Source: Pseudolysinimonas sp. (lineage in GTDB: Bacteria; Actinomycetota; Actinomycetes; Actinomycetales; Microbacteriaceae). From it: a DNA stretch of 64,000 nucleotides. The DNA is taken from positions 3,971 through 67,970 of the forward strand of contig DATMFW010000069.1 of NCBI GenBank assembly GCA_035556655.1. The letters are read 5' to 3'. The position numbers were made by a program, and so were the translations under genes. Positions 11,677 to 14,600 of this stretch are shown in pieces (position 1 is the stretch's first letter; each line of letters begins with the position of its first letter). A model generated the notes under the pieces. The model saw nothing but the letters and a program-made list of their open reading frames with translations. It searched no databases and had not been told where the DNA came from.

Positions 11677-14600
11677 GTGTATCTGAAGAGCCTCACCCTC
11701 AAGGGGTTCAAGTCCTTCGCCCAGCCGACCACTTTCGCCTTCGAACCGGGGGTCACCTGCGTCGTGGGCCCGAACGGCTCCGGCAAGTCGAACGTCGTCG
11801 ATGCGCTGGCCTGGGTGATGGGCGAGCAGGGCGCGAAGACCCTGCGCGGCGGCAAGATGGAGGACGTCATCTTCGCCGGGACCTCCACGCGCGGCCCGCT
11901 CGGCCGGGCGGAGGTGCTGCTCACCATCGACAACTCCGACGGCGCGCTGCCGATCGAGTACACCGAGGTCACCATCTCGCGCACGCTGTTCCGCAACGGC
12001 GGAAGCGAGTACGCCATCAACGGCGAACAGTGCCGTCTGCTCGACGTCCAGGAGCTGCTGAGCGATTCCGGGCTCGGCCGCGAGATGCACGTCATCGTCG
12101 GGCAGGGTCAGCTGGATCAGGTGCTGCACGCGAGCGCGGAGGAGCGCCGCGGCTTCATCGAGGAGGCCGCGGGGATCCTGAAGCACCGCCGTCGCAAAGA
12201 GAAGACGCTGCGCAAGCTCGACGCGATGCAGGCCAACCTGACCCGTCTGAGCGACCTGGCCGGAGAGATCCGCCGGCAGCTGAAGCCCCTGGGTCAGCAG
12301 GCCGAGATCGCTCGCGAGGCGCAGACCATCGCCGCGATCGTGCGCGACGCGAAGGCGCGTCTGCTCGCCGACGAGGTCGTCGAGCTGCGCTCGGCGATCG
12401 AGCAGGTCGGCCGCAGCGAGAGCGAGCGCAAGACGGAACGCCTCGTGCTGCAGGAGCAGCTCGACCAGGCGAAGCTGCGACAGGGCCGACTGGAGCAGAC
12501 GATGTCGGGCGATGCCGTCGACGGCGCCCGTCAGGTCGCCTTCGGGCTCGAGCAGGTGCAGGACCACCTGCGTTCGCTGTACACGCTGGCGAATCAGCGG
12601 CTCGCGCTGCTGGGTCAGCAGGCCGAGCTGCCGGGGATGTCGACGACGATCTCGCCGCGCATGGTCGAGGACGCCCGTGAGGAGGCCGCGCGTCTGTCGG
12701 CCGGGGTCGCCGAGGCCGAGGAGCAGCTCGGACGGGCCTCCGCCGTGACCGTCACCGCGAAGGCGAGCCTGGACTCCCTCGACGAGGAGATCAGCGCGCA
12801 GAGCGCCCTGGTATCGCAGCACGACCTCGAGCAGGGCAGGCTCGACGGGCTCGTCAACGCGGCCGGATCGCGCCGTGCGGCGACGCAGGCCGAGCTCGAC
12901 CGCGCGCGCACGGCGCTCGAGCAGGCCGAGCAGCGGCGTGAGCACGCGCGCTCGGAACTGCTGCAGCTGGAGGGCGAGGAGGGCGCCGTGGCCGAGGACG
13001 AGTCCCTCGCCCGCGCGCTGGAGACCGCGGAGTCCGCCGTCACCGCTCTGCAGGCCGAGGTCGAGACCCTGCGCGAGCACCTGCACACCGACGAACGCGA
13101 GCGCGATGCCCTCGCCGCCCGCACCGGGGCCCTGTCGCTCGCCGTCGACCAGAAGGACGGCTCCGGAGCGATCGTCGGTGCCCGCGGCATCCGCGGCCTG
13201 GTCGCCGAGCACATGCAGGTCCGCGCGGGGTACGAGGCCGCGATCGCCGCGGCGCTGGGTTCCCTGGCGGATGCGGTGCTCGCCGATGACCGGGACGCCG
13301 CGATCGCGGCGCTCGCCTCCGCCCGCACCGGCGACGCCGGCCGGGTCGAGATCATCGTCGCCGACGCCGAGGCGAGCACGCCGGTGGCCGGCCTTCCGGC
13401 GGGGGCGGAGTCCGCGGCCGCTCTGGTGACAGCGCCGGACGGCATCCGCGGGCTGCTGGCCCGGGTGGTCGTCGTGGATGATCTCGACGCGGCCCGCGCG
13501 GCCTGGCCCGCGCTGCGCACGCTCGGCGAGTTGACCGTCATCACCCGCGACGGCGACGTGCTGACCGAGCACGTGCTGCGCGGCGGGTCCGGGGGAGGGC
13601 GCAGCAAGCTGGAGCTCATCGCCGAGCGCGATGCCGCCCAGGAGCGCCTGGTCGAGGTCACGACCTCGATCGAGCGCCGGAAGTTCGCGCTGGCCGAGAA
13701 GCGCGAGGCGCTGGATCTGGCGCAGATCGACGCCGCGCAGGCGGCCGCGGCGCTGAAGGAGTTCGACGCCCGGCTCGCGGAGCGCAGCGAAGCGCTCGGC
13801 CGGTCGCGGGTGGCGTTCGAGGCCGCCTCTGCCGAGGGCGAGCGCCTGGCCGAGACGGTGCGTGCGCTCGGTGCAGCGGTCGCCGAGGCGGAGACCGCGG
13901 TGGAGCACGCCGAGGCCGAGCGCGACGCCCACGCGGCGACGCCGCGACCGATCCTCGACGTCAGCGCCCGCGATGCCCTCGTCGTCGAGCTGGATGCCGC
14001 ACGGGCCGGCGAGGTGCAGGCCCGGGTCGATCTGGAGACGGCACGCGAACGCGTGCGTGCCCAGCTCGCGCAGGCCGAGTCGCTGCAGAAGCAGCTCGAG
14101 GCCGAGCGCGCCGCCGCCGAGGAGGCGGCCCGCCTGGCGGTGCTGCGCCAGCACCAGATCGAGGCGGCCTCGCGAGTGCTCGAGGCCCTGCCGGCCGTGC
14201 TCGACACCGCCGACCGGTCGGTGTCGGAGGCGCGGGTGGCGCTCGCCGCCGCCGAGGCGGACCGCGCGAAGCAGAACACGGAGCTGAACGAGCTGCGTGC
14301 CGCGGAGAGCGCGCTGCGCGAACGGCTCGCCGGGCTCAACGAGAACGTGCACGGCCTGGAGATGCAGGTCTACGAGAAGAAGCTGCACCTGTCGACGCTG
14401 CTGGAGCGCTCGGCCGAGGAGCTCGGTCTCGACGAGGAGGTGCTGATCGCCGAGTACGGCCCCGACGTCCCGGTCCCCGTCGACGCGTCCCCGCCGAGCG
14501 GGTCGAGTAGCGACGCGGAAGAACCGAGCCGCTCGAGTAGCGACGCGGAAGCACCGAGCGGGTCGAGTAGCGACGCGGAAGCGTCGCGTGTCGAGACCGC

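Follow-up and report, generated by a model that had tools for sequence, protein, structure and literature searches.

Two described kinds of palindromic repeat have copies inside bacterial genes. The first comprises the GTAG-type repetitive extragenic palindromic (REP) sequences, with bacterial interspersed mosaic elements (BIMEs) and REPINs, and their intragenic copies (PMC2817692, Nunvar 2010; PMC3733652, Di Nocera 2013; PMC3116915, Bertels & Rainey 2011). The second comprises the Rickettsia palindromic elements (RPEs), which are inserted into coding sequences without shifting the frame (Ogata et al.; review, PMC10969869). Here we analyze a 64,000-nucleotide stretch of DNA from Pseudolysinimonas sp. 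(assembly GCA_035556655.1, contig DATMFW010000069.1, positions 3,971 to 67,970; hereafter, the window; G+C content 71%), in which smc, a chromosome-organizing gene, carries three tandem 30-bp units and a short tail within its reading frame. We consider it likely that this insert is a copy of a REP-like element, inherited as part of a doublet, amplified in its left half and tolerated as a passenger in a disordered loop of Smc.

The window element resembles GTAG-type REPs in several respects. It is 29–39 bp long and has GTAG directly before a short G+C-rich hairpin, so that the Pseudomonas mendocina REP GTAGCCCGGATGCAATCCGGG is comparable to GTAGCCGCGAAGCGGC of the window. Like REPs, it lies a few bases from the 3′-ends of genes whose neighbors are convergent or co-directional, forms singletons, inverted dimers and tandem clusters, and is occasionally found in-frame inside a gene of DNA metabolism. 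Unlike in REPs, GTAG is not at the very end of the element but within longer conserved arms with TCGA on both sides, the central stem varies from copy to copy whereas a REP stem is family-specific, the host is an actinobacterium, and the in-gene copy is amplified in its left half only. REPs have a cognate Y1 transposase (RAYT) gene, typically flanked by REPs; the likeness of the window element is one of repeat layout. Our literature search found nothing linking RAYTs or REPINs to Actinobacteria, and this phylum is not among the REP-bearing phyla listed in PMC3733652. The same study reported intragenic GTAG/CGTC REPs, many of them in replication and repair genes; SMC is not named there or in its supplements.

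The resemblance to RPEs is of a different kind. In both cases a selfish palindromic repeat is translated within a conserved housekeeping protein, at a position in a loop or on the surface where the fold can accommodate it, and some orthologs have the repeat while others do not. In the window the repeat is in-frame, leaves the open reading frame (ORF) intact, is absent from some orthologs and occupies a non-helical loop, as judged from a model of modest quality. RPEs, however, are about 100–150 bp long, fall into unrelated sequence families of an alpha-proteobacterial endosymbiont and specify a peptide that is conserved, whereas the window unit is about 35 bp, is not homologous to the RPE families, does not encode a conserved peptide and shares its loop with a second element family. 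The smc insert is thus an actinobacterial example of an in-frame insertion of the REP/RPE type, a kind already known. Particular to it are conserved arms combined with a free stem, in-frame amplification of the left half, donation of a stop codon and the use of one loop by two families. Mycobacterial interspersed repetitive units (MIRU-VNTR) and coding minisatellites are likewise actinobacterial tandem arrays with units on the 30–40-bp scale, strain-variable copy number and overlap with stop codons. MIRUs differ in being 40–100-bp intergenic units within operons rather than hairpin elements with conserved arms.

The element inside smc and at gene ends

The original prediction, made from the letters of the window, held that smc contains three in-frame 30-bp units reproducing an intergenic element whose TAG falls out of frame. 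Each of these statements was borne out. Tandem Repeats Finder reports an array at 14494–14582 (period 30, 3.0 copies, 91% matches, no indels, score 157), and the three units (CCGAGCGGGTCGAGTAGCGACGCGGAAGAA, CCGAGCCGCTCGAGTAGCGACGCGGAAGCA and CCGAGCGGGTCGAGTAGCGACGCGGAAGCG) differ pairwise at 2–3 positions. Together with the tail TCGCGTGTCGAGACC, the array (14494–14583) is in-frame with smc and is translated into the three unit peptides of Table 1 followed by SRVET, the TAG being read as G-TCG-AGT-AGC. Unit 3 and the 15-nt tail (14554–14598) make up a complete element with its own 7-bp stem, which folds at -26.8 kcal/mol (z = -3.5). The whole array is base-for-base the same in an independent assembly (L081; ENA ERZ27256370) of a strain 99.94% identical over 23.6 kb, and therefore an assembly artifact is unlikely. 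(Loci and proteins of relatives are referred to by L and P numbers.)

The same architecture, (G)GGTCGAGTA–hairpin–GTGTCGAGACC, recurs elsewhere in the window. The motif GGGTCGAGTAGC (at most one mismatch) occurs 7 times against 0.45 expected and GCGTGTCGAGACC 9 times against 0.54 expected; in neither case did any of 100 dinucleotide shuffles reach the observed count. Altogether there are eight copies at five sites, all at gene 3′-ends save the one inside smc (Table 1). The first site, between two co-directional genes, is an inverted doublet that forms a long hairpin (-68.6 kcal/mol, z = -9.8). Another, a head-to-tail array, fills the gap between smc and the convergent downstream gene, encodes the last Smc residues (...ERVETAQRVE) and donates the smc TAG stop, so that Smc ends in ...AAERVETAQRVE; ortholog tails end in ...GQRVxxxRAS. 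A rhodanese-like gene (55427–55726, ...LRGPVVE*) likewise stops at the TAG of a partial arm (55724–55726). Two window genes thus end on a stop codon supplied by the element.

Scanning 1.6 Mb of Microbacteriaceae loci, together with further loci, for the pattern yielded about 40 copies, with representatives in more than 10 other Microbacteriaceae loci. Their conserved arms, T[C/T]GAGTA and GT[G/A]TCGA[G/A]ACC, surround a short G+C-rich hairpin that differs between copies. We observed at least 10 different, fully paired central stems, including GCCGC, GCGC, GCCC, GGCCC, GCGCC, GCGGCC, GCCGCC, GCGCGC and GCGACGC, with closing stems of 4–7 bp. GAGTAG precedes the stem in most copies, its last G usually being part of the first pair; three copies (window 46557, L082 2020 and L082 3497) have GCAG or GGAG instead. 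Inverted doublets are also present in L043, L083, L087 and L088, and those in L043 adjoin ftsY, a membrane protein gene and ffh, not transposases. Rfam searches returned no matching family for the whole window at gathering thresholds and only chance-level miRNA or snoRNA matches around the smc locus at E-values up to 10. On sequence grounds, a family of REP-like (GTAG-type) palindromic repeats of Microbacteriaceae appears to be the best explanation, and the family appears to be undescribed in the literature that we checked. We also considered whether the element was born in smc and then spread; this was rejected, because several genera carry members of the family at many 3′-ends that are unrelated to one another.

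The identity of the host gene is clear. Its product matches Smc from a Pseudolysinimonas sp. metagenome-assembled genome (MAG) at 100% (NCBI HWM34644.1; P0121), and a PDB search aligned it with the B. subtilis Smc head at E-values down to 1e-58. The translation contains GPNGSGKS, LSGGERSL and FYIMDEVEAALD; the Pfam domains SMC_N and SMC_hinge are recorded for a near-identical product (P0001). A Walker A head, a hinge, the signature LSGGE, a Walker B motif and long coiled coils are all present.

Table 1. Positions of smc, of the copies of the palindromic element and of the second element; coordinates are those of the window unless a locus is named
Feature	Position	Strand	Details
smc	11677–15312	+	GTG start, 1211 codons, TAG stop 15310–15312 (from translations)
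Loop coding region of smc	14458–14634	+	Residues 928–986; hypervariable, low-confidence, between helix 920–927 and helix 987–1003
Array unit 1	14494–14523	+	PSGSSSDAEE; upstream 6 nt, left arm GGGTCGAGTA, 5′ stem half GCGACGC, loop
Array unit 2	14524–14553	+	PSRSSSDAEA; left arm variant CGCTCGAGTA
Array unit 3	14554–14583	+	PSGSSSDAEA; continues into 3′ stem half
Complete element in smc	14560–14598	+	Left arm GGGTCGAGTA 14560–14569, stem GCGACGC 14570–14576, loop GGAA 14577–14580, stem GCGTCGC 14581–14587, right arm GTGTCGAGACC 14588–14598 (from sequence and pattern scan)
Inverted doublet	4580–4652		+ copy 4580–4613, - copy 4621–4652; between two co-directional genes
Head-to-tail array, period 41	15282–15376	+	Chimeric partial copy 15282–15294, full copies 15302–15335 and 15343–15376
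Single copy	46557–46587	-	Stem GCGC/GCGC; begins right after stop codon 46554–46556
Partial left arm and full copy	55716–55774	+	1.5 copies; full copy 55741–55774
Second element in smc loop	L002 10640–10724; L010 10601–10685; L027 10613–10697; L064 10580–10664
Second element outside smc	L010 13816–13899; L008 1627–1709; L013 586–668; L019 1171–1255

A few further features of the window deserve mention. The program-made ORF of smc runs 84 codons further upstream (11425–11676) than the real GTG start, and an antisense ORF of 1505 aa (11614–16131, minus strand) spans the whole gene; both look like artifacts of high G+C content and not like genes. A promoter and terminator scan of 14300–15600 found nothing relevant, the palindromic elements being devoid of T-runs. 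Elsewhere, a long run of 33/66-bp periodic repeats (57057–58202, Tandem Repeats Finder scores up to 170) probably reflects a gene of repetitive coiled-coil or low-complexity character on one of the strands. More short tandem repeats of the coding type lie at 45612–45692, 29844–30007 and 27306–27371; they include a 15-bp unit, AAGAAGGCCCCGGCC, repeated 3.6 times, 12–27-bp units of Pro/Ala/Glu type and an 18-bp unit repeated 3.7 times.

A hypervariable loop of the Smc joint

The insert corresponds to residues 940–974, a 35-residue stretch rich in Ser, Asp, Glu and Ala. According to the original prediction it would be located between the C-terminal coiled-coil arm and the head. Structural comparison places it elsewhere. 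In B. subtilis Smc the joint comprises four C-terminal helices within residues 922–1011 (PMC5526789). We generated an AlphaFold2 model using 79 orthologs and, given its low overall scores (mean predicted local distance difference test (pLDDT) 67.8, predicted template modeling score (pTM) 0.28), used only its local features. These include a long helix (763–916), a short helix (920–927), a non-helical segment (928–986), a helix (987–1003), a loop (1004–1009, GRVNPL) and another long helix (1010–1072), with pLDDT below 50 at residues 938–979, which cover the insert and agree with its anticipated disorder. The order of long helix, short helix, loop, helix, GxVN loop and long helix is that of the B. 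subtilis joint (5NMO; PMC5526789, PMC9449133), so the model appears to reproduce its four C-terminal helices. Because the local helix pattern matches, the insert is best assigned to the loop that connects helices two and three of the joint, between the short helix and the helix that precedes GRVNPLALEEF, with more than 60 predicted coiled-coil residues still to come before the head.

The alignments are consistent with this assignment. The B. subtilis head constructs 3ZGX and 5XG3 begin to align at AERKFAQLGRVN, right behind the insert; position 229 of the 5XG3 chain, which is B. subtilis residue 980 by the construct definition in PMC5526789, is aligned with F1001 of the window Smc. The joint structure 5NMO gives a weak (E = 0.12) yet consistent alignment. 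In B. subtilis the joint is the ParB-docking region, and K954 and K957, in this neighborhood, cross-link to ParB (PMC9449133). By analogy, the window loop may lie near a ParB interface. What distinguishes the Microbacteriaceae is that the loop behind the short helix has grown to some 10–100 low-complexity residues; no such expansion has been described for B. subtilis.

How variable is this loop? The segment from QVYEKKL to LALEEF spans 76–162 aa, flanks included, among 80 species representatives (genome contigs), and the segment from AEYGP to AQL spans 44–117 aa, flanks included, among the 120 best protein matches; the variable part ranges from about 10 to about 100 residues across Microbacteriaceae. 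It is acidic and hypervariable also in relatives that have no element.

Many relatives do have it. The closest proteins (77–88% identity) contain the same element at the same site and in the same frame, and carriers include many Pseudolysinimonas-like lineages, a Rhodoglobus MAG and another Microbacteriaceae MAG, usually with a doublet of one forward (+) and one inverted (-) copy. The + copy is read as SSS...SR[V/I]ET and the - copy as GFDTPPEAATQP or DLDTPSETATRS. One copy of each orientation is found in P0007/L083, P0038/L084, P0018/L085, P0034/L086, P0012/L088 and L017 (Rhodoglobus). In L082 (P0004) and L051 a right arm and a - copy accompany a repeated left half, which comprises two perfect 30-bp units in the former and four 39-bp units in the latter. 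Doublets have decayed in P0030 (LVSASSLDHDAVDLTP), P0044 and P0070, and the loop of P0003/L089, P0123 and L001 has no element at all; in L089, where Smc is 88% identical, the anchored segment is only 44 aa. A neighbor-joining ordering of Smc without the loop distributes doublet carriers over at least three clades, mixed with lineages that lack the element or retain it in decayed form. Beside these, P0125 (NCBI HTE61636.1), labeled as a Solirubrobacteraceae bacterium, has the length and loop sequence of P0012 and falls into the same 90%-identity cluster; the label is probably a binning or taxonomy error.

The loop also harbors a second element, of about 85 bp and unrelated to the REP-like one. 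Its inverted ends, TC[C/G]GAAAT... and ...ATTTC[C/G]GA, are spaced 57–59 nt apart and covary among lineages. It is translated in-frame (for example, as PSEIQD...TPEFP), occurs both in the smc loop and outside smc (Table 1), and variants occupy the loop in L018, L019 and L039. A single 90%-identity cluster contains all three states: P0007 with the REP-like doublet, P0123 with no element and P0124 with the second element. The presence of two element families and of differing contents in close proteins suggests that the joint loop is a recurrent landing place with fast turnover. A further palindromic segment of the Smc loop, GSVGAGVAQSLAxLPxLHRAF (GCGCAATCGC...GCGATTGC), is common to L015 (4620–4720) and L036 (3350–3440), two MAGs labeled as different genera.

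History of the insert and competing explanations

The occurrence of the same element at the same site and in the same frame in many relatives indicates that the insertion predates the window genome. The expectation that the window Smc had itself gained the element thus holds in part: the element is older, and only the triplication of its left half is specific to the window lineage. The closest orthologs have no, one or two units, never the third, and hence copy number varies between lineages.

In the history that we favor, copies of the element would normally settle within a few bases of gene 3′-ends, as singles, inverted doublets or head-to-tail arrays, and one doublet would have entered the smc DNA encoding a naturally disordered, hypervariable joint loop. 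The only + copy frame seen in smc reads the element TAG as S-S-S. Depending on lineage, the doublet would then have been inherited, lost, decayed or replaced. In the window lineage the - copy would have been lost, and the part of the + copy that starts shortly before the left arm and reaches to the hairpin loop would have been duplicated twice, presumably by replication slippage or template switching at the hairpin. Within a coding region only periods divisible by three would survive, and the outcome would be 35 residues added to a loop that already tolerates almost any acidic low-complexity sequence. Given such tolerance, the insert is best read as a passenger, probably neutral at the protein level, whose arms and stem are still intact.

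The boundaries of the arrays fit this mechanism. All three in-gene arrays (3 × 30 in the window, 2 × 30 in L082 and 4 × 39 in L051) begin a few bases upstream of the left arm; the periodicity stops where the hairpin loop ends on its 3′ side or up to 2 nt into the 3′ stem half, and the rest of that half and the right arm are single. Such a boundary would be expected from slippage or template switching at the hairpin, followed by survival of periods divisible by three. The four 39-bp units of L051 arose independently of the window array. If the GTCGAG repeats of the two arms were the slippage partners, the steps would instead be 28 nt in smc, which is out of frame, and, for the intergenic array, 41 or 18 nt. 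This intergenic array is 59 nt longer in the window than in L081 (13599–13641), two strains that differ by 12 single-nucleotide polymorphisms over 23.6 kb. The difference equals a chimeric 18-nt partial copy and one 41-nt unit, changes the Smc C-terminus from AAERVE (L081) to the window ending given above, and could be a real polymorphism or a collapse in one of the assemblies. The suggestion that the tandem array may vary in copy number is accordingly supported between lineages and by this sister array behind smc, but not within smc itself, where both strains have three units. A metagenome scan with the full + copy pattern gave no matches; with an 18-mer it gave 77 contigs, none with a right arm or smc context, and these are chance matches. 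As for the - copy, a regular-expression search found none in the window smc loop. A MAFFT alignment of linker DNA from seven lineages, made in search of a remnant, was not relied on as palindromic similarity misaligns the arms; GCCGACACCCC...CAGACCACC resembles the - arm and the PQTT of P0018, which is suggestive only.

Several points weigh against this history. A single ancient insertion is not proven: rapid turnover inside the 90%-identity cluster leaves room for repeated insertion or allelic recombination, an inverted doublet is the same either way round and its orientation is thus uninformative, and P0008, P0049 and P0078 show a different frame of the - arm (VSTSST). Mobility of the element is suggested by its dispersal, and the structural model is poor overall. 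No within-population variation of the 3 × 30 array was seen in the two strains compared. Finally, arms and stems are better kept than neutral decay predicts, which fits a pure passenger poorly and leaves room for a role of the nucleic acid.

The alternative that survives best is that there was no single old insertion and that the loop DNA is a hot spot for recent independent gains, by targeted insertion or allelic recombination. The three loop states of one cluster, the two element families in one loop and arms almost identical to the intergenic consensus all speak for it, and the shared orientation of the doublets does not help to decide. However, related lineages have stems and loops in common. 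GCGACGC is the stem in the window as well as in L082, L083 and L084, and a single compensatory pair separates it from that of L088; the loop GTCA is common to L084, L085 and L086, and the - copy stem GCCGCC to L082, L083 and L084. Moreover, all nine sequenced in-smc cases are in the same frame, and the end of the - copy always lies 2–6 residues ahead of the conserved PF.R motif. We therefore regard exclusively recent gains as possible but rather unlikely. An old insertion with frequent loss is the more likely history, with recurrent acquisition its serious competitor.

We next consider what is being conserved. Across nine lineages, 4 of 14 third codon positions vary in the arms, whereas 44 of 58 do so in the conserved codons that flank them (Fisher p = 0.0014). 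Third-position identity among same-amino-acid codon pairs is 0.90 in the arms and 0.67 in the flanks. The conserved arm codons end in A or T despite the 71% G+C genome; G+C at third positions falls from 91% in the flanks to 52% in the arms. Base pairing is kept as well: eight - copies within smc have 97.5% of their pair cells paired, a value that none of 500 shuffles reached; the shuffled figure is 86.5%. These shuffles treat the sequences as unrelated, and kinship limits the weight of both the pairing and the codon statistics. Three stem pairs have changed on both sides, sliding the stem partners lowers pairing to 26–53%, and L084 and L085, which share the loop GTCA, differ by the loss of one codon from each stem arm. 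The peptide, by contrast, varies among lineages (SSSDAEASRVET, SSSASARIET, LSSAQARIET). Judged from these sequences, conservation appears to be at the level of nucleotides and base pairing, not of the peptide. Hairpin selection, arm-to-arm templated repair, conversion by other copies or simply youth could be the cause.

Could the hairpins in smc then be selected as nucleic acid, as ribosome-slowing mRNA, a processing or stability site or protein-binding DNA, with the peptide a by-product? Pairing, codon usage and the second inverted-repeat family at the same place in other genera are in line with this idea. Yet no palindrome is present there in many lineages (P0003/L089, P0123, L001 and others), the - copy is gone from the window lineage, and compensatory changes could stem from templated repair or conversion. 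On balance we find such selection unlikely. More doubtful still is its extension to the whole family, in which a hairpin in the joint loop would be kept for its own sake throughout Microbacteriaceae and filled by the REP-like doublet, the ~85-bp element or the other palindrome. If true, the in-ORF hairpin could pause ribosomes after the long C-terminal arm helix emerges, aiding folding of the antiparallel coiled coil and joint, or it could be a binding site for a repeat-recognizing protein.

The original prediction favored exaptation of the element as a disordered acidic linker of an essential protein. Spelled out, such a linker would be functional, for example in tuning joint flexibility or partner binding, and its length would be under selection. 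The insert is indeed acidic, Ser-rich and predicted to be disordered, it resides in the joint whose B. subtilis counterpart contacts ParB through K954 and K957, among others, and left-half expansions occurred independently in three lineages. However, the loops of element-free relatives are equally acidic at very different lengths, proteins at least 90% identical have three unrelated loop contents, and decayed or deleted versions are common. Conservation of synonymous sites and base pairing in place of the peptide does not support exaptation either, and we consider it improbable. The word "essential" is also too strong for Actinobacteria, as viable smc mutants are known in Corynebacterium, Mycobacterium and Streptomyces.

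That the likeness to the intergenic element is a coincidence, since short coding repeats abound in high-G+C genomes (91 tandem-repeat rows for the window), or a product of assembly is exceedingly improbable: both arms (10 and 11 nt) match in the correct order and spacing around a perfect 7-bp hairpin, the motifs are at least 15-fold above shuffles, and homologous copies in relatives as well as the identical array of L081 led us to reject chance and artifact alike.

Implications for Smc and Microbacteriaceae genomes

The preferred reading, a REP-like doublet inherited in a disordered loop and amplified in its left half, adds an SMC-borne case from an actinobacterium to a small set whose members so far are the RPEs of Rickettsia and REPs located within genes of DNA repair. 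It implies that the joint loop of Smc tolerates tens of arbitrary low-complexity residues, and this tolerance would make the loop a naturally permissive place to put tags or insertions. The left-half arrays may be a clear case from nature of slippage that is bounded by a hairpin and filtered by the frame of translation. In Microbacteriaceae at large, the element family would mislead both gene callers and repeat-based typing.

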